Source: a virus (lineage: Duplodnaviria; Caudoviricetes). From it: a stretch of 59,803 nucleotides of DNA. The position numbers and the translations under genes were made by a program. Positions 1 through 59,774 of this stretch are shown one piece after another. The stretch lies in the IMG/VR virus record IMGVR_UViG_3300033993_001438, positions 1-59,803 of that record. One strand, written 5' to 3'. The number at the start of each line of letters is the position of its first letter. Position 1 is the stretch's first letter. The notes beneath the pieces are model-generated. The model had not been told where the DNA came from and searched no databases. It saw only the letters and a program-made list of their open reading frames with translations.

Positions 1-132
1 CTTTTTGTACAGCGGCGACACAAACTGGTTCGGGTCTTTGACGCGAACCGTGTCTCCCTCAATCGGCTCCCACTCATCGGCATAACCAGCGGATGCAGGA
101 GACGGCTCGTTGGCGTCATTTGGTGTAGTCAT
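1..132 (-). CDS. Cassette-borne hypothetical protein, 3' end outside the window (MTTPNDANEPSPASAGYADEWEP...)
   Basis: ATG at 132 preceded by GAGGAGAAAAC inside the attC loop; the frame stays open to the window edge. Confidence 0.6.
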   Translation of the reverse strand, partial: MTTPNDANEPSPASAGYADEWEPIEGDTVRVKDPNQFVSPLYKK

Positions 133-169
133 GTTTTCTCCTCGCCGCTCCTGATCCGTAGCGTTCGCC
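80..169 (+). repeat. attC-like recombination site 1
   Basis: GCATAAC-CAGCG-GATGCAG-GAG-A-CGGC...GCCG-CTC-CTG-ATC-CGTAGC-GTTCGCC: R''/L''/L'/R' spacing with two extrahelical bases, as in canonical attC. Confidence 0.85.
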
Positions 170-171
170 AA

Positions 172-450
172 CTAGCCAACAACCACGCCGGTGTATTTTT
201 CCGTCTCCGCGAGCAGTTCTTCGGCTCTCTTGACAGCCAAGTGCCTGTCCTCAAACCACTGCTCAAAAGACTCGGCGTTGTCTTGTCCGCGACCCTTCTT
301 TGGGAAGCCGTCAGACAAGACGCCGTCCAACATCGACGCGACCGACCGCAGTTGCGCCCGCAGGCTGCAAATCGTTTCAGTCATTTCTGCTTCGGCATGT
401 GTCATCGCTTTCTCCTTTGTTGTTTCTGCCACGCCAGTGATTTTACTCAT
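172..450 (-). CDS. Cassette-borne hypothetical protein
   Basis: 92-aa ORF filling the interval between attC1 and attC2; stop codon next to R'. Confidence 0.7.
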   Translation of the reverse strand: MSKITGVAETTKEKAMTHAEAEMTETICSLRAQLRSVASMLDGVLSDGFPKKGRGQDNAESFEQWFEDRHLAVKRAEELLAETEKYTGVVVG

Positions 451-518
451 GCCTTGTCAAGCGTAAACCTTGGCGAACCAACGGATGCAGCGGACAGCGT
501 TGCATCGTCTTTAGGCAT
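447..518 (-). CDS. attC-encoded leader peptide MPKDDATLSAASVGSPRFTLDKA
   Basis: AAAGGA RBS and ATG in the attC2 loop; its TGA overlaps the ATG of 172..450 (ATGA). Confidence 0.5.
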   Translation of the reverse strand: MPKDDATLSAASVGSPRFTLDKA

Positions 519-560
519 GGTGAGTCCTTTCATCGCTGCCGCTGATCCTGCGTGTTCTCA
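472..560 (+). repeat. attC-like recombination site 2
   Basis: GGCGAAC-CAACG-GATGCAG-CGG-A-CAGCG...CGCTG-CCG-CTG-ATC-CTGCGT-GTTCTCA. TTGGCGAAC is the exact complement of GTTCGCCAA at 163-171. Confidence 0.88.
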
Positions 561-812
561 GCCCAGCCGTTCCAGCAACCCGCGAAGGGTTGCAATGTCT
601 TTCCTGCCAACGTCTCCGATCTGACTGTTGTCCTCGCACCATTGCAGCCAAGACAAGTCTCTCTCAATCGCCTCCCGCTCCTCGTCGGTGAGCCGCAGCC
701 GTTCGATCTCCCTCGCGGCGTCATGGCACACCCAGTAGCGTTCCTCATCATCTGTGCCGATGAGGTTCGCTGGTGCCAGCCGCAGTCGGTCGCAGATGTC
801 CACCTTGCTCAT
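558..812 (-). CDS. Hypothetical protein, EIERLR/LTDEERE/RGLLER family
   Basis: ATG 812 after AGGAG in the half-attC; paralogous to 1130..1381. Confidence 0.75.
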   Translation of the reverse strand: MSKVDICDRLRLAPANLIGTDDEERYWVCHDAAREIERLRLTDEEREAIERDLSWLQWCEDNSQIGDVGRKDIATLRGLLERLG

Positions 813-816
813 GTTT

Positions 817-843
817 CGCCGCTCCTGATCCTTCACGTTATGC
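817..843 (+). repeat. Half attC site (L'-R' arm only)
   Basis: CGCCGCTCCTGATCC-TTCAC-GTTATGC, nearly identical to the right arm of attC1; no left arm upstream. Confidence 0.7.
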
Positions 844-1059
844 CCCAGCATCCGCCGCCGCGTCGATCAGCGCTTTGCCGAGCAGCCTTGCCAACTCCGG
901 AGACACCGTGAAACGAATGTTTCCAAAATGCTCCTTGCTTGCAGCGTCCGGCGTGCAGACCCCAACGCAGCCCAGCCCGTCGCCGTCAGGGCCAACCTCA
1001 ATGCAAGCTCCGCAGGCGTCGTCGTAGATTCGGCGGCTAAGTTCCACGCTGTATGCCAT
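838..1059 (-). CDS. Cassette-borne hypothetical protein (MAYSVELSRRIYDD...)
   Basis: AGGAGAAAGGA RBS before ATG 1059; the TAA stop lies within the GTTA of R'. Confidence 0.75.
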   Translation of the reverse strand: MAYSVELSRRIYDDACGACIEVGPDGDGLGCVGVCTPDAASKEHFGNIRFTVSPELARLLGKALIDAAADAGA

Positions 1060-1086
1060 TCCTTTCTCCTTTTGTGAATCCACCCG

Positions 1087-1134
1087 GCATAACCACGCGA
1101 TGCTGCGGACGAGCCGCTGATCGCATCGCTCACT
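1087..1134 (+). repeat. Short degenerate attC-like site
   Basis: GCATAAC-CACGC-GATGCTG-CGG-A-CGAG-CCG-CTG-ATC-GCATC-GCT (GCT in place of GTT). GGCATAAC complements GTTATGCC at 837-844. Confidence 0.65.
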
Positions 1135-1381
1135 TCGTCCGCTCCAGCAGCCCCCGCACCACTCGCTCGGTGAAGTCCACGCAACGGTACGATGCGTCCT
1201 CCGCGACACCATGCAGAACATCCCGCTCCTCGTCGGTGAGTCGCACCGTTTCGCGCCCATCTACTGCACCGTTTCGCAGCCGCTCAATCTCATTTGCGGC
1301 CCGCTCGCAAAGCGTGTCAACGACCTTGCTGGAGTAAGCCCGGTCGCGCAGCTGTTGGACGATGTCTGTCACAGATCGCAC
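1130..1381 (-). CDS. Hypothetical protein, paralog of 558..812
   Basis: Shared AANEIERLR, RLTDEER and RGLLER motifs. Confidence 0.75.
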   Translation of the reverse strand: MRSVTDIVQQLRDRAYSSKVVDTLCERAANEIERLRNGAVDGRETVRLTDEERDVLHGVAEDASYRCVDFTERVVRGLLERTK

Positions 1382-1578
1382 TCCAGCAGGCCGGCAGGGA
1401 TCATGTTGCGGATCGTCTCTGCGAGGTCCATCGCTTCGCTGTCGGCGTCACTGTGCTTGACAAGAGATCGGCACTTGTTGTCGATGTCTGACAAGGCCCG
1501 CAACGCCTGATGGCCGGACAGCGCAGCATGAAACTCATAGTCGTCGTCAGGCAGCGTGAAGTTTAGCGAGGCGCGCAT
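1369..1578 (-). CDS. Small phage hypothetical protein (MRASLNFTLPDDDYEF)
   Basis: Resembles a common small phage protein N-terminus; overlaps the next gene. Confidence 0.7.
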   Translation of the reverse strand: MRASLNFTLPDDDYEFHAALSGHQALRALSDIDNKCRSLVKHSDADSEAMDLAETIRNMIPAGLLECDL

Positions 1579-1646
1579 GGTGGACTCCAAAGGTTAACGA
1601 GAAGCAAAAGCGCGGCCAGCACCGCGTAGAAGTAAAGGTCCGGCAT
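1563..1646 (-). CDS. 27-aa hydrophobic peptide
   Basis: MPDLYFYAVLAALLLLVNLWSPPCAPR fills the gap between neighbouring genes. Confidence 0.35.
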   Translation of the reverse strand: MPDLYFYAVLAALLLLVNLWSPPCAPR

Positions 1647-1660
1647 TGTGTCGATGTAAT

Positions 1661-1927
1661 TCATGGCCAGTTGGGGTACAGCAGTACGCCGCACCGCGTC
1701 TCAGGGTCAAGCACCTCCACCGCGGCGGTGCGTGGGAATGTCGCACTTACAAGGGCGCAGATTTCGTCATACGGCAGGGCGTCCAGGACCTCCGCATGCT
1801 CATCCGCCCAGGTCTGCACGGTCGCGTGATCGCACGCAAACCCGGGGTCCTCGTCGCCGCAGTTGAGCCACAGCCGCATGGAAAACCGCGGCTGATGGAT
1901 CATTACCATGTTCTCCCTAACTACCAT
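1661..1927 (-). CDS. Hypothetical protein
   Basis: GGAGG RBS upstream of the ATG; co-oriented with the operon. Confidence 0.6.
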   Translation of the reverse strand: MVVRENMVMIHQPRFSMRLWLNCGDEDPGFACDHATVQTWADEHAEVLDALPYDEICALVSATFPRTAAVEVLDPETRCGVLLYPNWP

Positions 1928-1986
1928 GATGGACCTCCTTGGTGTCCTTGCAGTAGTAACCATCCCCGGGGACCTCTCCCCAGGAA

Positions 1987-2649
1987 TCAACCAGGCTCTT
2001 TCGGAGCCTTGCGACCTCTGCCTCTAGGGCTCGGATCACACTTGTCATCTCCGCCGCCCGCCTCTCCGAACGCTCCAGACGCTCCGTCAACCCACTGCAG
2101 GCCGGAGGTGGAGAACAGCAGCTCGCAGAGCTGAGAGGCGGGCCGGAGGAACTTGGAAGGGGCGACGAGGGTGGGCATGGCGAACCCTCGCATGCTGTCA
2201 AAGACGACACGCTCCTGCCAAGATCCGTCGCGGTCGATTGCGCAAAGCCACACCCAGTGACCCGTGACCTGCGAGATGTAGACCCAGGCGAACGGCTGCT
2301 CGCCTCGCCTGAGGCCGGTGACGTCATCGACAAAGACGGTGTCATAGGGGAAGTCTTCCGGTCCGGTGAACTCAAGGTTGCGGAGCTTTATTTCGATGGC
2401 CACCGCCGCCACTGCGTCCGGGGTTGGACAGAAGTCCGCTCTTGGATTGTGGTCCGGGAGGACGAGCTTGACCCCGTTTGCGACAGCGCGACCGTGGGTC
2501 GTCCTCATCTGGGCCACCCACTTGCCCTCGGCCTGGTGGGCTTTGCCCAGGACTGCCAGGAACTTCTCCTTGGACCATCCTTTCGATGTTGATTTGCCGG
2601 ACGCGGGCTGCCCTCCTGGCGATTTCCGCGGGCCCCATTTCTTTGGCAT
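1987..2649 (-). CDS. PD-(D/E)XK nuclease-like protein
   Basis: AEGKW...PDAVAAVAIEIK motif pattern. Confidence 0.55.
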   Translation of the reverse strand: MPKKWGPRKSPGGQPASGKSTSKGWSKEKFLAVLGKAHQAEGKWVAQMRTTHGRAVANGVKLVLPDHNPRADFCPTPDAVAAVAIEIKLRNLEFTGPEDFPYDTVFVDDVTGLRRGEQPFAWVYISQVTGHWVWLCAIDRDGSWQERVVFDSMRGFAMPTLVAPSKFLRPASQLCELLFSTSGLQWVDGASGAFGEAGGGDDKCDPSPRGRGRKAPKEPG

Positions 2650-3007
2650 CGATGTCCTCCCAAAGCTCCGTGCTAAGCGGCTCTGCCCTGCGGATGTCCG
2701 ATGACCTCCGCTCGCAATCCGCAACCTGGTCCACCGTGACCCTGAACGCACGGGCGATGTCAGCGTGGGTACGATCCGGATAGCCAAGACTCAGGACGAT
2801 CAGCCGGTCCCGGCTCGGCAGGCGATGCCTCCGCAGCAGGGCGACCATCTTCTTGCCGACGTCCGGGCTCAGATCTAGCGACTCCCACACCTTGCGGGCC
2901 GGCTCCCGGTTGACGAACACCCGCCTCCAGATGTCCGGCGCCACCGCGAGGGGCACGCCCAAAGAACCAATCCTTAACTCTTGTCCACAGCGAACGCTTA
3001 GGCTCAT
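2372..3007 (-). CDS. HTH-containing protein
   Basis: THADIARAFRVTVDQV HTH-like segment; AGGAGGA RBS; C-terminal part overlaps the next gene. Confidence 0.5.
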   Translation of the reverse strand: MSLSVRCGQELRIGSLGVPLAVAPDIWRRVFVNREPARKVWESLDLSPDVGKKMVALLRRHRLPSRDRLIVLSLGYPDRTHADIARAFRVTVDQVADCERRSSDIRRAEPLSTELWEDIDAKEMGPAEIARRAARVRQINIERMVQGEVPGSPGQSPPGRGQVGGPDEDDPRSRCRKRGQARPPGPQSKSGLLSNPGRSGGGGHRNKAPQP

Positions 3008-3066
3008 GGTCCTCCTCCTGAGGGGCGAAAGGGAAGGCTTCGTCAATCCTGAACACCGCAGCGATC

Positions 3067-4608
3067 TCATCGACCGTGTCCTGCAAGAGAGCGTCGGCGC
3101 GCCTTTTCACGGTGGAAGAATGACTTCTGCCATCCCTTGATGTTGGTCTGCCGTAACGCCCAGTCGATGTATCCATCGTCCAGTTCCCCCATGCGGCGAC
3201 CCGCGTTCCGCCCACGCAGCGGGCAGCGGTACTCGCTGATGCACTTCTTCTTGCCAACAAGCTCAACGTCATGGCCGTGCAGCGTGCCGGTCGCCTGGCC
3301 CGTCATGCCGCGGAGCGATTCCTCAAGCAGCTTGGCCTTGCGAACGTCGTCGGCCGCCTGGGCCAGGAGGTCGCCGGGATCCTCGGCGTCGCCTTCCTCG
3401 GCCCGCTTGCGGGCACGGATGACAACCTCCTTGTCCTCGTCGTCCTTGGCGAACATGTCCACCGCCGTGACGATGGAGTGGTCCTCCGTGGTCCCGGTGA
3501 TGTCCACAATCTTGAACCAGGGCTTATCGCCGGATGCGATAGACAGCAGCCTCGCGGCAACGCCCTCCATGCCTGGTGCAGACAGCTCGTCGCGGCCATC
3601 CACATCACCAGGGGCCGGGCGGGTTGCCCGTCCGATGACCTGCTTGAACAGCACCCGGCTGCGTGTCGGCCGGAACATGAACACCGTCCGCGTGACCGGG
3701 GCATCGAAGCCCATGGTTGCGATCTGGCAGTTGCAGAGCAGGTCGATCTCTCCGTTGCGGTACCTGTTGATGACCAGGTTCCTCTCGTCGTCGCTCTGGA
3801 TCCGCGTGTCGCCAACGATGTACGCCGCCCGCATGCCGTAGGCGTTCTGCGCCAGCTCTGCCAGGGACATGGCGGTGCGAACGCCAGGCAGGAACGCCAG
3901 GGCCGCACCGACGCGTTCCTTCTGGACGATCAGGCACATCTGGTGCAGCGGGCGAGCGGCGCCGAGGACCAGGTCCAGGTCGCCGGCCGAGAGGTCGCCG
4001 CCGGTAACCTTGACGTTCTTGGTGTCCAGCCCATCCACGCGGACAACCTTGGCCCGCGGCGACAGGCACCACCCCTCCTCAATGCCACGCTTCAGGTCGT
4101 ACTCAAACGCGACCGTCTCGTAGAAGTCCATCAGCCGCCGGCCGTCCATGCGGAACGGCGTGGCCGTGAACCCAATGACGATCCCGCCGTGGGCCTGGAA
4201 GTCCCGCAGCATGGCCAGGACGGCCTCTGAGAACTGCGTGTGAGCCTCGTCAACGATGATCAGCCGGTACCCAAGGAATCGCTTGTACCGCTTCTCCTTG
4301 CCGGCCAGCAGCGACTTGACGCACGCCACCACCACGCGGCCCCCGTAGGAGCCCGCCCACTGGTTGGCCATTTCCACTTCCGTGTACTCGCCGGTCACGC
4401 GGTCGGCCGTGTCGGCGCACTGCCAGACCAGCTCACGCAGCGGTGCGATCACCAGCACCTTGCTGTTGCTGCACATCCGTGCCAGCAGGCTGAAGACCAC
4501 CGTCTTCCCTGCGCCAGTGAACAGGACGGCCAAGATCGCCTTGGCCCCCTGGGCAATCGCTGCAAGGATCCGCTCGCAGCACTCTTCCTGATAGTCTCTC
4601 GGCTTCAT
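3067..4608 (-). CDS. SF2 DEAH-box helicase
   Basis: Q-motif RDYQ, TGAGKT, IVDEAH, TATP, MGFDAP, QVIGRATR. Confidence 0.93.
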   Translation of the reverse strand: MKPRDYQEECCERILAAIAQGAKAILAVLFTGAGKTVVFSLLARMCSNSKVLVIAPLRELVWQCADTADRVTGEYTEVEMANQWAGSYGGRVVVACVKSLLAGKEKRYKRFLGYRLIIVDEAHTQFSEAVLAMLRDFQAHGGIVIGFTATPFRMDGRRLMDFYETVAFEYDLKRGIEEGWCLSPRAKVVRVDGLDTKNVKVTGGDLSAGDLDLVLGAARPLHQMCLIVQKERVGAALAFLPGVRTAMSLAELAQNAYGMRAAYIVGDTRIQSDDERNLVINRYRNGEIDLLCNCQIATMGFDAPVTRTVFMFRPTRSRVLFKQVIGRATRPAPGDVDGRDELSAPGMEGVAARLLSIASGDKPWFKIVDITGTTEDHSIVTAVDMFAKDDEDKEVVIRARKRAEEGDAEDPGDLLAQAADDVRKAKLLEESLRGMTGQATGTLHGHDVELVGKKKCISEYRCPLRGRNAGRRMGELDDGYIDWALRQTNIKGWQKSFFHREKARRRSLAGHGR

Positions 4609-4698
4609 GTCGCCCTCCTTGTTGGCGGTGGCGCTGGGGGCATCCCACCCCCAGCGCCGTAATCCGTTCGCCAGCCGGCCTCATGCCAGCACAGTGCC

Positions 4699-5034
4699 CT
4701 AGAACGCAGACTCCTCCTGCCGCTCGCGGGCACCACCCAGCAGCGTCAGCTCGCGGACCTGAAGGCCCACGTGCGTCCGCTTCTGGCCATCCTTCTCGTA
4801 CGTGCGGCTCTTGAGAGAGCCGATCACACAGATCGTCTTGCCGCGGGTCAGGTACTCAGACACCTGCCCAGGCCGCCAGTAGTCGCAGTCCAGGAACAAG
4901 ACCTCGCCGTCCTTGCGGCCGTTGACCGCAATGGCGAACGAGGCAACCTCGTTCTCACCGACCATCTTGACCTCGGCATCGCGCGTGAGATTGCCGACAA
5001 ACGTGCAGTTGTTGACTCCGCTAGCCATCGTCAT
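4699..5034 (-). CDS. ssb: Single-stranded DNA-binding protein
   Basis: VGNLTRDAE, FAIAVN, YLTRG, GSLKSRTYEKDGQKR; acidic tail ending in F. Confidence 0.93.
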   Translation of the reverse strand: MTMASGVNNCTFVGNLTRDAEVKMVGENEVASFAIAVNGRKDGEVLFLDCDYWRPGQVSEYLTRGKTICVIGSLKSRTYEKDGQKRTHVGLQVRELTLLGGARERQEESAF

Positions 5035-5678
5035 GCCTCCTGGAAACGTGTGGAAACCAACTCACTCATCCGGTCGAACACGGCGGGATCGCACACACGC
5101 TCGCTGACGCGGAGCTGGATGCGGTCCAGGGTCTTCTGGGCGTCGGCCATGGTCTTGGCCTTGTCGATCTCACCCTTCGCCAGGGCTTCGATCTGGAGGC
5201 TCTTGTCCGTCCGCTGCGGGACCTTGGCCTTTGCCTGCGGCATCGCCTTCTGGGCGTCGTCGTCGTCCTCAGCCCACGCCCCAACGAGGCCCAGCAGCAG
5301 GTACTTCTTGGCGTAGGTGTAGGCAGAGCCCAAGGACTGCATGTCCTTGCGCTCGTTGCCCTCCTTGTCCACGCCCAGGTACACCGGGCACAGGCTGGTG
5401 ACGAACTCGCCGCTGCTGTGCCGCAGCGTGCCAACAGCAATCCACTCGCCGCCGACACGCGTCAGGCAGACCTGCGGCAGAGGGAAGCCGTTCTGGTTGA
5501 GAGGCTCACGCAGGGCCTCGCAGATGTCGCTGTATCGCATGTAGCGATACTTGCCGAACTTGTTGTCGCCGCCCTTCTCAACGGCAGGGAACTTGGCCTG
5601 AGCCTTTACCAGCGCTCCGACCAGCGTCATCGTCTCCGGGCTCGTCGTCAGGCCCGGCAATCCATGGTCAACAATCAT
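5031..5678 (-). CDS. ERF-family ssDNA annealing protein
   Basis: ALVKAQ..., N.FGKYRY, LRHSSGE, QSLGSAYTYAKKY, EDDDD motifs. Confidence 0.85.
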   Translation of the reverse strand: MIVDHGLPGLTTSPETMTLVGALVKAQAKFPAVEKGGDNKFGKYRYMRYSDICEALREPLNQNGFPLPQVCLTRVGGEWIAVGTLRHSSGEFVTSLCPVYLGVDKEGNERKDMQSLGSAYTYAKKYLLLGLVGAWAEDDDDAQKAMPQAKAKVPQRTDKSLQIEALAKGEIDKAKTMADAQKTLDRIQLRVSERVCDPAVFDRMSELVSTRFQEA

Positions 5679-6550
5679 CGCCTTCCTCCTGTGAAAAACG
5701 CTGGGAACTCCAGCTCCAACTCCTCGTCGTCCTCAGGCGTCCTGTACTCGCCCAGCTGTCGTCGCAGCCGGATCTGGTCCAGGGTCACCCTGATCTGTTC
5801 GCGAGCCTCCTCAACCAGCTCGTCTGGGAGGGTCACCACTCGCACGCTGTGCGGCTTATGCGTCTGGGCGAAGATGAACCGCAGCTGGTGGTAGTCCCAA
5901 CCGCACGCCACCGCCGCATCCACGTACCAGGCGGCTTGCCAGAGGTAGCCGTAGAGGTCGCATGACCTCCACAGTTCCTTCCAGTCAGAGGATGTGGTCT
6001 TGTAGTCCCAGAGAAAGCCTTCGGTCACGCCGTCGGCCAACGCCTTGCGCTTGTGGCCGTGCGAGTCCTCATGCCTAAACGTGGCCTGCATGTCCTTGGT
6101 GGCCTCAAGGATCTCGCGGGCACGCTTGTTCTTCAGCGTGTTCTCAACGATCCGGTTGAGCTTCCACCAGTCGCCGGCCGACACTTCCAGGCGGCCCTGG
6201 TTCTGCTCCTTCCACTCCGTGTACGCCTTGCCGCGGCGGGCCCCGTTCGACAGGACCTCCTCCGGCGGGATCACGTAGCGGTCTTCCAGCCGAACGCCGG
6301 CCACCACCATGGGAATGGCACGGTCCACCATCGATCCAAAGTCTGTCCCGGCGTTGCCGCTGAACAGACGTTCCCCGTTGTCCAGCGCCTCCTGGGCGAG
6401 CCCGCCGCCCTTGAAGACGGAGTGGGCAAACGAACGCGTCAGGTACCCGTCATCCACCCGGTAGGCCGCGTCGATGGCGTCCTGGTCCAGGAGTTTGCCG
6501 TTTGTGGAATCCAGGCAACCTGGGGTGTATGATCCAAAAGCGACGGTCAT
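5675..6550 (-). CDS. PD-(D/E)XK exonuclease (ExoVIII/DUF3799-like)
   Basis: KALADG...WDYKTT, YGYLWQAAWY; adjacent to ERF and SSB. Confidence 0.8.
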   Translation of the reverse strand: MTVAFGSYTPGCLDSTNGKLLDQDAIDAAYRVDDGYLTRSFAHSVFKGGGLAQEALDNGERLFSGNAGTDFGSMVDRAIPMVVAGVRLEDRYVIPPEEVLSNGARRGKAYTEWKEQNQGRLEVSAGDWWKLNRIVENTLKNKRAREILEATKDMQATFRHEDSHGHKRKALADGVTEGFLWDYKTTSSDWKELWRSCDLYGYLWQAAWYVDAAVACGWDYHQLRFIFAQTHKPHSVRVVTLPDELVEEAREQIRVTLDQIRLRRQLGEYRTPEDDEELELEFPAFFTGGRR

Positions 6551-6701
6551 CGGATCACCTCCCTCAGGCAGACGACAGCCTGGCGGGGGAAACCGATGAC
6601 GAGCAGCGTGAGGGCTGCGCCGCAGAGGATGGATGCAGAGGCGGCTAGAATGCCAAGCCTCAGGGCGGTGCTAGCCAACTGAGCTAGTTGCCCTGAGTGC
6701 T

Positions 6702-6730
6702 TGACAGAGCCGCAAAATGCGGAACTGTCA
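6702..6730. promoter_or_regulatory. Imperfect palindrome upstream of the tyrosine recombinase
   Basis: TGACAGAGCCG-CAAAATG-CGGAACTGTCA; overlaps a TTGACA at 6701-6706. Confidence 0.45.
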
Positions 6731-6739
6731 GGTATAGCC

Positions 6740-7558
6740 ATGCTAATCTCCGAGTACGCTTCCCGCTACGCCAACAGAATTGGGGCTTCCCCCGGCTATT
6801 TGGAGCAACTTTTGGTTTTCACCAGGCGTCTGCCCTGGCACGTGGAGGAGGTCACCACCGACATGGTGGACTCCTATCTCACAGATGCCCTCACCCATTT
6901 GAGGGCCCAGACAGTCGCCAATCACCGCAGGCTCCTCACAACCCTCATGCGTGATGCAGCCCGCAACGGACTGAACACGTGTATAGCACGCGGATTCCGA
7001 CGCGTCAAGGTGCCCAGGCCGGTTCCCAGAGCGCTGTCCCGGGACGAGATCCGTGCGGCGGTGGAAGCTGCTCGCAAGACCAAGGGTCATTTCCGTGACC
7101 TCCGCAAGTCCGACTTTCTTGTCGCCTGGTTCCTGACCGCCTACTGCACCGGCTTGCGGGCCGGCGACCTCATGGAAGCGCGGTGGGGTCAGGTTCGCGG
7201 CCGAAGAATGTATGTGCGTCAATCCAAGACGTCAACACCCCACGTGACGGTTTTTACCGACGAGGCTTTGGAGGCGTGCAAGGCCCTTCCACGCAAGCAG
7301 CGGATCTTCGGAGACTTCGCTGCGATGAACACCATCCAGCAGTGGGTCAAGGCCTGCATGCTGTCAGCCGGCCTGGACGCTAGCACCAAGTTTCTGCGGC
7401 GCTCGGCCGCGACTTATGCCAAGGTCCAGGGCAAGAACCCCAAGCACGTTCTCGGACATTTGACCGACGGGCTCGCGGAGCGGCACTACGTCGATCAGCT
7501 TCTATATGAGGAAGAGGCCGGCATCAACGGCGAGCCGCTGCCGTCAGTGCTGGGCTAG
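6740..7558 (+). CDS. Tyrosine recombinase/integrase
   Basis: TGLRAGDL (R), QSKT (K), KFLRRSAAT (K at the His position), LGH, RHY; lone plus-strand gene between two modules. Confidence 0.88.
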   Translation: MLISEYASRYANRIGASPGYLEQLLVFTRRLPWHVEEVTTDMVDSYLTDALTHLRAQTVANHRRLLTTLMRDAARNGLNTCIARGFRRVKVPRPVPRALSRDEIRAAVEAARKTKGHFRDLRKSDFLVAWFLTAYCTGLRAGDLMEARWGQVRGRRMYVRQSKTSTPHVTVFTDEALEACKALPRKQRIFGDFAAMNTIQQWVKACMLSAGLDASTKFLRRSAATYAKVQGKNPKHVLGHLTDGLAERHYVDQLLYEEEAGINGEPLPSVLG

Positions 7559-7836
7559 GTGTCGTTCTTGTACTCAGGCCTGTCGGAGATGCGGCCGACT
7601 CTGTAGGTGGGCCGAATCAGCCCGGGCTTGCCCTTCGCCCCGCTCATGGCCGGGCTGCTGATGTTCCGCGGCCGACGCTCTCCCTCGCCCTTGCGCCACA
7701 CGCCAACCTCTTTGCCTCGCCGGTACTCCGCAAGCGAGATGCCCAGCCGTTCGGCCTCGGCCTCGTCCGCGTACAGGTCGAACAGGTTCTCTTCTGGCTG
7801 GCGGAGCCGGCGGATGTTGTCTTCGGCGTTAGGCAT
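7555..7836 (-). CDS. Small basic late protein (MPNAEDNIRRLRQP)
   Basis: Last gene of the virion operon; overlaps the stop of the large protein. Confidence 0.6.
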   Translation of the reverse strand: MPNAEDNIRRLRQPEENLFDLYADEAEAERLGISLAEYRRGKEVGVWRKGEGERRPRNISSPAMSGAKGKPGLIRPTYRVGRISDRPEYKNDT

Positions 7837-10800
7837 TCTGCACCCCCAGGATGGCAAGCGGGTCGTTCTCCATCTTCTTCCGCTCGCGGGCCTTCTTTGC
7901 GGCCTCTGACTGGAGGACCCGGTACAGGAGGTACTGCCGCTGCTCCTGCGGCGAGAGCTTCACCAGTTCTTCCGGCTTGATGAACAGGTTTTCGTAGCTG
8001 CTCATTCCCTTGGCCTGGTCCAGCAACTGGTTCAAAGTGGTGCGGGCCGCGAGCCTGGCGGTCCGCTCCTGGTCAACGTCCTGCACCTTCACGCCGGTGA
8101 GCATGTTGAACAGGAACTTGGCCGCACGCTCCTGCGGGCTGATGCGGGTGTCCATGGCCTGGCGAATGGTTCCGGCAACCCGCGACCCGCCGGGGAGGTT
8201 GAACACAGCCTGGTCGATCAGCCGCCCGCCAGGCAGGTCCATCTGCTCGGCAAGCGAGTACAGGTCCGACAACTGCCGGCCGCTGTAGAACTGGCGGTTG
8301 GTAAAGAACTCCAGCGGCGCCTTGAACAGCGGGTTGGTCTGGCCAAGCAGGTTCTGCCCCGTCTTGGTCAGCATGTCGATTGCCTGGCCGGTGAGCGTGT
8401 TGCCCACGCCCGGCGTCAGGAGGTTTAGCAGGCCCTCATGCGGCAGATCGACGTTGGTGAGGACACGCGAGATGCCGGGCGTGTTAACACCAAGCAGCGG
8501 GAACGACGGGTCGATGGGGATCGCCGCAGACTGCCGCAGGTACTCCGGCGTGAATCGATCCTCCGACGGCTCGGAGAGTCGATTGATGCCGCGGATGCTC
8601 TGGCCCATGAGGCCAGACGGGTTGTTGATCAGCTCCTGGGCGACGAGCGGTGAGATGCCCTTGGTGTAGGAGTAGAACGGAATGAGCCGCTTCAGGATGT
8701 CCCGCTCAAACGCGGTGAACGCCTCCGGGCGGTAGTTCACCTGCGTCAGGTCAGCGACCGCCTTCGCCGCGGCGGGGGCGTCACCCTTGCGGACACGCGT
8801 GAGGTACGCGCCAATGCGGTTGAATGCATCGCTACCCTCCGCCGCCCGGTCACCCAGCTCAAGCAGCCAGTTCCTGTTGCCTTGCGCAGTGCGAAGGGCC
8901 CCCAGGTCCCACGGGATGGGCCGGCGCCGAATCCGCTCGCCCATTCCTTGGAAGATAGGACCTGCCCCACCAGGGAACGTCTCGTTGTACGTGAGGTTGC
9001 TGGCCTGCCGCCCCAGGTCGTCGGACACGGATCCGAACGTGAGCCCCTCGCCGGCCGCCTCCGTGAGGAACTTGCGAACACGGGCCTCGGAAAGCTGCTC
9101 GGCAGACGGTGCGGCGCCAACAGGGAACAGGTCATCGACCTGGTAGCCAGGCGCCCGCTCAAGCTGCCTGGCGAGCGGGCCGTAGTTGCCACCACGCACG
9201 CCCACAGCCGCCGCGGCGTCAAACGGGTTGAATGCCCCCTGCGTTGCACCGGCGAATGCACCGGAGTACATGTCACGCACGTAGCGGGCTGGCCATAAAA
9301 GTGCCAGCGACTTAAATCGCTGCGTGTAGTTGTCAATGCCTTTCAGAAGGCCTTCGGCCTCACGTGGCGCTCTGGCGCTTGTCAGGTTGGTGTTGAGCCT
9401 GTCCACCAGATCGCGCGAGAATGAGCGACCACTAAGCAGCTCATCAGGGCTCACGCCCATGCGGCGTGCCAACGCCAGCACGCCAGCGTCATCCTCCTTG
9501 GTCGCCATGAAGCCCAGCTCGCGGAGGGCTTCCAGGGGCGTGTAGACCGCACCACCCGGAACGTCGTCGGCGGCCTGGATCAGGGCGTTGGAAGACAGCT
9601 CGTCCAGGAGGATGTCGGCGGTTGCCTCTCGCCTGGCGTTGTGCCGCACGTAGCTGGAGAGGTCGTTGAGCGCGTTGCCGTACAGCGGGATGCCCTCGTC
9701 TGCCCGCTGCAGCGGCGTCCTGCGAAGGCTGTCTGCGAGGTCTTCGTAGGCACTCTGCTGGCGGCGGCCAACCTCGGCGGCCTTCTCCATGGCCTCGTCG
9801 CTGAGGTCCGTTGGGTCAAGGCCGGATGCCATGTAGTCGAATGGCATGCCGCCATCGCGGATCGGCCGGAAATCCGACGCGTTGGCGGTCAGCCAGTCGT
9901 CAAGAACCAGGCGAGCCTCGGTGTTGGGTGCGTTCCGGAGCGCGGCCTGGAGGTCCGCGTCCTGGTACATCTTGTTGAGTACCCACCGCGGGAATGCCTC
10001 GGTGTACCCACGGCGAGACGAGCGGGTGCCGTCGTTGATCGACGCCACCGCACGGTCACGCAGGGGGATGGTCTTGGTGCCCTGGAACCGCGGATCGTAC
10101 TTGGCCGCCGGGATGTCGGTGGCCTGCCGCGTGAAGTAGCGGATGAAGTTGGGCAGTTCCTTGTGCTTGAGCGGAATGCCGAGACGCTCGGCTCTCCCAA
10201 GCGCATCCCTCTGCTCGTCAATGGCGAACCGAACAGCCTGTCGCACGTTGGGGTCGCGGAACAGCCTTCGCATCTCAGGGGGAAGCTGGCGGGCCTGCTT
10301 CTCCATGACGTCACCAAACGCCCTGGCGAACTCCTGCGACCGTACTATCTGCTCGCCAGTCATACCGGCCAAAGTGGTGCCGGTAAACGCGTCTGGGTTG
10401 GCCTCGGCGTACCTGCCGACGTCCTGCATGAGCTGCGCGTGCATGTCCGCAAGACGGCGGTTCACATCCCGCATCGCCGTCTGCTCGCCGCTCGTCACCC
10501 GCCGTCCGAACATCTGCCCCTGTTCGTCGGTGAATCCCTTGACCCGCGAGTCAAACAGGGCCTGGGCACCCCTCAAGGCAGGGCCGATGACTGGCGTGGC
10601 ACGGGCGTTGGTCTGCAGCCAGTCGCTGCCGCGGGCGAGGTAGTCGCCCACGGTGGAGCCGTACATGTCGAACGCATCATCCACAAGGTACGGCACCTTG
10701 AGGTAGTTGCTCCTTGTCAGCGGCTGCGCCCATTGCTCGGCGGTCCCGCCGGCCTGCTCAAAAGCACGCCGTGCGCTCAGGAGCGACTCCTGGCGAGCGG

Positions 10801-59694: not shown

Positions 59695-59774
59695 GTGATA
59701 TGCAGCACTCGGTAACGCCGTGTCTCGCGTCACGCGGCCGTGCGGCGCGGAATCGGCGGGGTGATATGCAGCAC
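59695..59774. repeat. 14-bp direct repeat x2
   Basis: GTGATATGCAGCAC at 59695-59708 and 59761-59774. Confidence 0.7.

Follow-up and report, generated by a model that had tools for sequence, protein, structure and literature searches.

Integron cassettes of the textbook kind are promoterless and carry their recombination site, attC, behind the gene. One of the closest systems described so far to the one reported here is that of the integrase-less attC clusters (CALINs) found in phages by Qi, Rajabal, Ghaly, Tetu and Gillings (2023; PMC9892861), whose attC sites recombine with the bacterial integrase IntI1 and whose cargo includes methylases. In this work, we describe an array of attC sites in the IMG/VR virus record IMGVR_UViG_3300033993_001438, which was analyzed over its whole length of 59,803 bases and is hereafter called the window. 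Positions 75-1138 of the window, on the minus strand, are probably a small CALIN in a tailed phage, made up of attC cassettes that are reversed with respect to the classical ones and have a start codon in the loop of the attC hairpin. As in the published CALINs, arrays of at least two attC sites lie in phage genomes without an intI gene, and DNA methyltransferases are part of the cargo. The published arrays, however, had an arrangement typical of bacterial ones, and section 3.4 of that paper makes no mention of bottom-strand genes, starts in loops or a shared leader, whereas an attC of the type seen in the window precedes its gene and is partly translated. Since the record has no intI, the element is a CALIN and not a complete integron, and it lacks attI and Pc as well. 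It is a phage CALIN in a reversed, start-in-loop variant: attC clusters are known from phages, and this layout was not found in print. A search of the open full-text literature, in which subscription journals were not covered, gave no paper on bottom-strand phage cassettes with a start codon in the attC loop.

Other described systems share single features with this layout. Short open reading frames (ORFs) inside attC sites, ahead of the next gene, were reported for class 1 integrons by Jacquier et al. (2009), as cited in PMC11511950, where they are described as anecdotal. A 23-codon ORF of the window likewise ends in an ATGA overlap before a gene, but those cases are classical top-strand ones, whereas in the phages the polarity is reversed and the ORF that begins in the loop is mostly the cassette gene itself. 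Nivina et al. (2020; PMC7439510) engineered attC sites into protein-coding sequence and used them as flexible linkers. There as here, a recombination fold also encodes a tolerated peptide, but those sites were engineered, whereas the phage sites appear to be natural N-terminal counterparts that include the start signal. Loot et al. (preprint, 10.1101/2022.09.11.507474) dealt with the insertion of cassettes by IntI at genomic secondary sites (attG) in the chromosomes of E. coli and V. cholerae. Cassette entry without attI would be common to both situations (compare two phage loci, L008 and L003, in which the end of the array abuts non-attC sequence at ...AA|C), but that work concerns bacterial chromosomes, and phage genomes and the present attC family lie outside it.

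The sequence-only reading of this DNA had taken the repeats at its left end for attC sites, and we reached the same view from the structure and sequence family that they have in common with intI-linked sites and from the complementarity of the cassette ends. According to Nivina et al. (2016; PMC5027507), the bottom strand of attC has an AAC triplet in the R' box and the complementary GTT in R'', with extrahelical bases opposite the AAC (positions 16 and 23/24); between the first of these bases, usually a G, and the last, a conserved T, there is a stem of 6 bp, and the spacers usually have 5-6 nt. Two sites of the window, A (173->75) and B (564->468), follow one plan on the minus strand: an AAC-ended box, a 5-nt spacer, an arm of 14-15 nt starting with GGATCAG, a loop of ~36 nt, a complementary arm ending in CTGCATCC, a 4-nt spacer and a box that starts with GTT. 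Two unpaired bases, T and C, bulge out of the 3' arm of both sites; they are set 6 bp apart and, counted from the outside edge of the GTT box, occupy positions 16 and 23. The inner one, T, is as in the published definition. The hairpin was reproduced by single-strand DNA and RNA folds, and a compensatory change distinguishes site A (CAGGAG/CTCCTG) from site B (CAGCGG/CCGCTG). These sites thus share with classical attC sites the AAC and GTT triplets, the unpaired spacer, the bulges opposite AAC, the 6-bp stem, the inner T and the variable loop, and their cassettes share with classical ones the complementary unit ends and a crossover, here predicted, between the A and C of the triplet. They differ in the gene, which is on the bottom strand and behind the site, in the outer bulge C, in the weak RYYYAAC consensus and in the lack of intI, attI and Pc.

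Site A is a complete attC on the bottom strand (75..173, minus; cmsearch 87.8 bits), 91 nt from box to box. Its 5' side consists of the box GGCGAAC (169-163), with the predicted crossover at 164|163, the spacer GCTAC and the 5' arm (157-144); GAGGAG and the ATG at 132 lie in the loop, and the 3' arm (106-91) with the bulged T and C is followed by the spacer GCTG and the box GTTATGCC (86-79). As RNA it folds at -37.6 kcal/mol (z -3.9), with a Shine-Dalgarno (SD) sequence and the AUG in the loop. Site B is also a complete bottom-strand attC (468..564, minus; 93.0 bits), 89 nt from box to box, with the box TGAGAAC, the predicted crossover at 555|554, the spacer ACGCA and the 5' arm (548-534), a loop of ~36 nt with AAAGGA and the ATG at 518, and a 3' arm (499-483) with bulged T and C before the spacer GTTG and the box GTTCGCC (478-472). 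An independent repeat search recovered one family of copies at 142-165, 533-556 and 816-839 and a second one at 78-104, 470-496 and 1085-1111, while the 15-nt motif of the 3' arm is found without mismatch at sites A and B alone in the 59.8 kb.

Relatives were gathered with a 20-nt pattern of the 3' arm, which matched 18 viral contigs and 91 stretches in contigs of bacterial genomes (loci numbered with L below). A 5' arm lay at most 130 nt from the pattern in 16 of the 18 viral matches and in nine of the 91 bacterial ones; the remaining 82 bacterial stretches were treated as chance. One viral locus, L011, matched the pattern and gave no match to the model built from these sites. The seed alignment of this model comprised 18 sites (14 from phages, the window included, and four from bacteria) and has a 14-pair stem in which 99.6% of the cells are paired and four pairs show compensatory changes. 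Its covariation score was 0.184, against 0.053 in shuffles, none of 500 of which reached it, and 0.016-0.058 in slid controls. Both triplets, AAC and GTT, are invariant in all 18 seed sites and present at sites A and B. The energy of single-strand DNA folding was unremarkable (z -0.7, -1.8 and -0.3), which qualifies this pattern. The covariance model, R1, gave 90 matches at E<=0.05 in 28 sources, with same-strand arrays in 17 of the 18 related phage contigs and three to seven sites per array at the phage loci. In the window, the scores of 93.0 and 87.8 bits on the minus strand compare with 12.5 and 11.8 bits on the plus strand.

Genomes of Planctomycetota, Kiritimatiellia and Gemmatimonadales have the same type of site in their chromosomal integrons, and all five bacterial genomes that have it encode an IntI above the curated TIGR02249 cut-off (four of four if G002, flagged as unpublished, is left out). 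In one Phycisphaeraceae chromosome (G001), R1 found 14 same-strand sites in L072 and six in L085, two loci outside the seed alignment, at 25-41 bits, and an IntI of 308.6 bits (cut-off 265) is encoded ~650 nt from the last L072 site. The boxes of the Phycisphaeraceae relatives are the textbook GCCTAAC / GTTAGGC. The six same-strand sites of L085 (G001 contig 10, 1944001-1952000) form a second set on the far side of intI from L072 (1872001-1880000), ~65 kb past it, and represent either a CALIN of their own or a portion of one very large, rearranged array.

In the classical integron layout, intI and the cassettes are divergent. The intI of G001 is on the plus strand, starts ~650 nt past the last of the L072 sites and is directed away from the array, so that under this layout the cassettes read on the minus strand and the strand that matches the model is the bottom strand. 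Moreover, ORFs on the opposite strand are longer in 15 of the 18 intervals of L072 and L085. The coding strand of the bacterial arrays was assigned because of these two results and the bulge rule; Pfam searches of ten candidate ORFs from these arrays gave two sub-threshold or implausible matches only. The single weak site of L112, in G002, lies past the 3' end of intI and is uninformative on orientation. The bulged bases in the window are on the arm opposite the AAC triplet, which makes its minus strand the bottom strand by the published rule (PMC5027507), save for the outer bulge C. In the phages, the genes share the bottom strand with attC, as seen in the whole gene set of the window and in four of four Pfam-supported cassette genes elsewhere (a C5 methylase, two HNH nucleases and an N6/N4 methylase). 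The attC site therefore sits before its own gene, and the genes are on the bottom strand, the reverse of classical cassettes, in agreement with the inverted orientation first proposed from the sequence.

It had also been proposed that three of these sites supply a ribosome-binding site and an ATG on the minus strand, that the arms of two of them encode similar peptides and that the stop codons of the upstream genes lie in or beside the 5' boxes. All these elements are present: GAGGAGAAAAC-ATG with the ATG at 132-130, AAAGGACTCACC-ATG at 518-516 and AGGAGCGGCGAAAC-ATG at 812-810; EPSPASAG(YA) read from ATG 132 and TLSAASVG(SP) from ATG 518; and stop codons at 174-172, 560-558, 840-838 and 1132-1130. 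It was further suggested that any order of cassettes would stay translationally coupled; the distance from stop to ATG is 25-40 nt for sites A, B and C and ~70 nt for D, without any overlap. The wider claim, that each cassette carries its own start signal in its attC, stood for site A and many relatives, which carry an SD sequence and an ATG, but did not extend to the other sites of the window, where the full pattern is seen at site A only. There, the ORF of cassette 4 (1..132, minus) starts in the loop and runs for 44 codons before the record ends; its translation, MTTPNDANEPSPASAGYA..., passes through the 3' arm and the 3' box (EPSPASAGYA), and similar leaders occur in L008 and L016. The ORF that starts in the loop of site B (447..518, minus) has 23 codons, MPKDDATLSAASVGSPRFTLDKA*, and its TGA overlaps ATG 450 as ATGA. 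To judge from the cases cited in PMC11511950, it looks like a leader ORF of the kind known from class 1 attC sites. Its leader is fused to long ORFs in L005, L010, L012, L018, L019 and L020.

A loop ATG in the conserved frame, which reads ...S-x-A-S-x-G... through the arm, is present at 31-32 of 41 distinct long-loop phage sites, and at 27 of them it opens an ORF of at least 79 aa, against two and none in the other two frames; short loop ORFs of 16-28 codons were found at four sites, site B of the window among them. A long loop ORF was found at only one of 30 long-loop sites of bacterial contigs, in L105, which is a phage-like contig; L067, phage-like too, shows the pattern by eye only, and none of the 28 sites in the arrays of L043, L051, L063, L072, L076, L085 and L088 has such an ORF. 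SD-like motifs precede the loop ATGs by 5-9 nt; they lie in the loop itself or consist of the AGGAG in the 5' arm.

The translated 3' arm and GTT box yield a stereotyped N-terminal leader of 16-21 residues, rich in Ser, Ala and Gly. The leader MPKDDATLSAASVGSA is found ahead of a C5 methylase body in L012 and L018, of an HNH nuclease body in L005, L010 and L020, of a protein without known family in L019 and in the 23-codon ORF of the window. Pfam matches begin directly after the leader, at residue 22 for the C5 methylase and at residues 22 and 35 for the HNH nucleases, where the zinc-finger motif CFECGG stands at residue 22. No start codon other than the one in the loop is available to the bodies of the HNH nucleases and the N6/N4 methylase. 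These data support the view that each attC is part of one unit with the gene that follows it and is able to provide the putative SD sequence and ATG of that gene, and we infer from the sequences that the loop ATGs are likely to be real starts.

A mobile unit that arises as a circle, excised and opened at AA|C, should begin with a GTT box and end with an AAC box that are reverse complements of each other, and the same relation should then link the 3' box of one site to the 5' box of the site that follows. In 34 non-redundant adjacent pairs of phage sites, the mean shared prefix was 7.24 nt, against 4.62 nt after shuffling (none of 10000 shuffles reached the observed value) and 4.68 nt for the two boxes of one same site, and in 28 of the 34 pairs the prefix had at least 7 nt. 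The 23 adjacent pairs from bacteria gave 9.17 nt against 5.57 nt, with 10-11 nt in most of L072. In the window, the pair D->C has GTTATGCC in common (8 nt) and the pair B->A has GTTCGCCAA (9 nt).

Recurring cassette bodies (families F0, F1, F2 and F3) were found behind different neighbours: the F0 body behind F7, F3 or F54, the C5 methylase body behind F6 or F25, and the HNH body behind F24, F16 or F22. The copies of F0 in L007, L008 and L003 show no difference up to ...GGTAGAA|C, after which an attC follows in L007 and a shared non-attC backbone in L008 and L003. These break points place the boundary of the unit at AA|C and assign each attC to the gene behind it.

Variants of the array also appear in lake-water metagenomes. 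Of the words sampled from window 1-3000, 24 runs contained at least about a third and five contained half or more, and contigs from four of the 24 runs were compared with the window. They are long over the backbone and fragmented over the array, where many of their loose ends start at boxes and lead to other upstream sequences. In run X1, a 164-nt contig follows positions 554-691 without difference and then 137-162, skipping 391 nt, with four ambiguous letters at the joint. This amounts to a fusion of cassette 2 with site A's own spacer at AA|C, that is, to a precise absence of cassette 3. Contig depths in this run, which are crude, were 14.4 for the variant, 7.4 for the contig bearing cassette 3 and 18.7 for the backbone. 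Joints of another class, 150->542, lie in the GGATCAG arm, with seven shared letters, and not in the AAC triplet. They may reflect other phages or homologous exchange; the contigs with such joints in runs X3 and X4 are deeper than the backbone, and other phages are their probable source. In the same two runs, nothing covered positions 201-400, the body of cassette 3, which was not taken as evidence by itself.

Several observations weigh against this picture of the locus. Site C (818..844, minus) is a half-site, with the 5' box GGCATAAC (844-837), the predicted crossover at 838|837, the spacer GTGAA and the 5' arm GGATCAGGAGCGGC (831-818), whose AGGAG is the SD sequence for ATG 812; its 3' arm and the GTT side are missing, it forms no hairpin, and its model score of 4.6 bits is not significant. 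Its 5' box and the 3' box of site D are reverse complements of each other. Site D, at the upstream edge of the array (1082..1138, minus), is a minimal attC-like site (cmsearch 19.6 bits, E 0.029 and 0.00037) with a loop of ~2 nt, AGC where the others have AAC, a 3' box GTTATGCC at 1093-1086 and no start codon; with ~48 nt from box to box it falls under the range of 57-141 bp. Sites C, as a half-site, and D, with its ~57 nt and AGC in place of AAC, are probably inert. The outer bulge at sites A and B is a C, where G is usual, their spacers have 5 and 4 nt (published: usually 5-6 nt), and the extended consensus RYYYAAC / GTTRRRY is only loosely followed (GGCGAAC/GTTATGC in A, TGAGAAC/GTTCGCC in B). 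TIGR02249, the IntI model, gave no match in the whole window record at E<=1 nor in any of five other array-bearing phage records at E<=0.01. The joint that lacks cassette 3 is one short contig with 26 nt on its short side, and run X1 is perhaps the window's own sample.

To these must be added the sites without a loop start. At 9-10 of the 41 long-loop sites and at all seven complete short-loop sites there is no conserved-frame start in the loop, and the next gene has its own SD sequence, although one of these sites, L008:6961, holds a loop ATG that the frame test missed. In the window, the 23-codon ORF of site B precedes the gene of cassette 3 (172..450, minus; 92 aa from ATG 450, or 77 aa from ATG 405), whose ATG 405 is preceded by a strong SD sequence of its own, AAAGGAGAAAGCG, and whose stop codon, TAG (174-172), comes shortly before the 5' box of site A; site C is broken, and site D is without a start. 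In the C5 methylases, the site is followed directly by an in-frame ATG, at position 1 of the Pfam model, which is a possible alternative start. Open frames run through attC in the classical direction too, in L072 and L085, and an open frame alone is weak proof. Top-strand ORFs at L072 3939-4295 (minus) and L085 6857-7378 (minus) can be extended upstream through the preceding attC, and the extended ORFs share ~23 attC-encoded residues (MYT..SPAGGRQLSRSSLGR) before an internal Met, which warns against taking an open frame across an attC repeat, on its own, as a sign of translation.

The short ORF of site B, the ATG of the C5 methylases and the extensions in L072 and L085, which look spurious, also speak for a reading in which these are true attC cassettes whose loop ATGs are not used, the real starts lying downstream and the peptide being a by-product of open frames in a conserved GC-rich repeat; all three frames through the 3' arm are open. 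We nevertheless regard this as unlikely. Against it stand the preference for one frame over the other two at the long-loop phage sites and the SD-like motifs 5-9 nt before these ATGs. Two HNH nucleases and an N6/N4 methylase begin right after the leader and have no other start codon, and the IntI-bearing bacterial arrays lack the feature, which among the sites of bacterial contigs was seen on the two phage-like ones only.

A different doubt concerns the way in which the cassettes move. The sites may derive from attC and now be shuffled by homologous recombination between their conserved arms, without an integron integrase. None of the six phage records examined has an IntI, the window encodes an ERF annealing protein (5031..5678, minus) and a PDDEXK exonuclease (5675..6550, minus) as candidates for such exchange, the arms of different sites are near-identical over 7-15 nt, and the 150->542 joints fall in one of these arms. 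A crossover anywhere between the boxes would, besides, also keep the unit ends complementary. On the other hand, the joint that lacks cassette 3 lies in four letters at AA|C, with the spacer of site A, and outside the two longer stretches of identity (7 and 9 nt), and F0 ends at ...GGTAGAA|C against non-attC sequence in L008 and L003, where there is no homology. Homologous exchange would also not select the features that IntI requires (the bulges, their 6-bp spacing, AAC and GTT), which are kept through compensatory changes. As an account of the whole we find it quite improbable; as an account of part of the shuffling, exchange through the arms, possibly by the ERF system of the phage, is a rival. 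That the sites are phage RNA hairpins for translational control or mRNA processing, with a convergent likeness to attC, is highly improbable and was already disfavoured: they are stable as RNA (-37.6 and -34.6 kcal/mol) and lie between genes transcribed in one direction, but the same model finds dense arrays beside intI in a bacterial chromosome, the unit ends are complementary as in an excised circle, the break points are at AA|C, and no Rfam family matched window 1-2000 at E<=1.

For reversed cassettes with a start in the loop, we propose the following course of events. The mobile unit would consist, in order, of the C of AAC, the spacer, the 5' arm, the loop, the 3' arm with its two bulges, the GTT box, the gene body, the stop codon and the ...AA of the next triplet. 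At site A and in many phage cassettes, the unpaired loop would offer the SD sequence and the ATG, and the 3' arm and GTT box would be translated as the leader, while the stop codon of the preceding gene would fall in the 5' box. The position in the loop may keep the start accessible, and a ribosome terminating at the 5' box may help to open the hairpin. The host's integron integrase would shift the cassettes in trans, which seems the most economical reading of how they move. Beyond the window, we put forward tentatively the idea that environmental phages have a reverse-polarity class of cassettes of their own, in which the attC hairpin has been co-opted as a portable start and N-terminal tag, and which are swapped among phages, and with host integrons, by the host IntI during infection or lysogeny.

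If a widespread site-first form exists in phages, a DNA recombination hairpin would double as a translation start, and very different proteins would tolerate one hairpin-encoded leader. Phages may then use the integron integrases of their hosts to swap accessory genes, including anti-restriction methylases, and host integrases would be a driver of accessory-gene shuffling in phages that involves methylases, HNH nucleases and many small proteins without known family. How genes become joined to attC is, to our knowledge, an open question, and the layout would represent a natural case of a gene and an attC becoming one mobile unit. It would also provide natural templates for recombination sites within coding sequence, for which there have so far been synthetic designs only.

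Regarding the host, a search with the major head protein of the window against 301 Planctomycetota genomes gave no match at E<=1e-10, which shows nothing on the host. Near-identical long-loop sites with a loop ORF (MIEDTD..., MAEETD...LPASAGS/YA) were seen in L067, a contig of a Chthoniobacter metagenome-assembled genome, and in the viral contig L017. The former contig is probably a phage or a prophage, and would point to a Verrucomicrobiota host for that group of phages.

The remaining cassettes of the window carry small genes on the minus strand. Cassette 2 (558..812) encodes 84 aa of what we call the LTDEER family, and its TGA stop (560-558) lies within the TGAGAAC box of site B; it has a paralogue within the window, the ORF 1130..1381, and relatives in six other phage cassettes. 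Cassette 1 (838..1059) encodes 73 aa from ATG 1059, with an SD sequence of its own, AAAGGAGAAAGGA, and a TAA stop inside the 5' box of site C. The ORF upstream of the array (1130..1381; 83 aa) belongs to the LTDEER family too, ends with a TGA (1132-1130) in the 5' box of site D and has 49% identity to a cassette ORF in L012. Pfam and PHROGs searches with the four cassette ORFs and this upstream ORF found no family. LTDEER proteins are small and have a conserved C-terminal sequence in common, ...LTDEER...LLER, whose end falls in the TGAGAAC box; many of these phage cassettes are filled by them; besides window 558-812 and 1130-1381, they were seen in L005, L006, L008, L010, L012, L013 and L014. 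The highest summed contig depths in the lake metagenomes fall in the bins 601-700 and 1101-1200, both with LTDEER coding sequence and the latter also with site D, and reach 2607 against ~18 for the backbone.

The IMG/VR virus record, which the window covers in full, is classed as linear, and CheckV estimates its completeness at 100%. Nearly all of its long ORFs are on the minus strand, and the attC array, at the extreme left end, is at the downstream end of these genes. Among the products of the record are a portal protein, the major head protein and structural proteins of the virion, together with a helicase, the ERF annealing protein and the PDDEXK nuclease. The gene at 6701..7558, on the plus strand, encodes a tyrosine integrase of the phage type (PF00589, 31.2 bits; phrog_1 integrase, E 2.9e-24) and not an integron integrase; NCBIfam gave it weak XerA/XerC/XerD matches only. 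It is the sole plus-strand gene and lies back to back with the ERF and PDDEXK module (5031-7558 in all). The phage is a tailed, probably temperate phage of lake water. A blastn search of INPHARED phages with window 1-8000 gave no match.

Three minor observations concern the ends of the record. The 14-nt motif GTGCTGCATATCAC occurs in two exact copies, 66 nt apart, at 59695-59708 and 59761-59774 (minus), upstream of the first ORF (ATG 59625) and at the very start of the minus-strand gene set; the pair could be an operator, a promoter or a terminal element. When the record is closed to a circle, the ORF that is cut at base 1 continues from AAG (3-1) into TGA (59803-59801) and gives a 44-aa protein, and this immediate stop may be due to chance or hint at a complete, circularly permuted genome. 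Finally, the attC array lies at most 500 nt from the contig end in eight of 19 records (the window, L003, L007, L009, L013, L015, L017 and L018), as expected if assemblies break at cassette arrays that vary in the sampled population.

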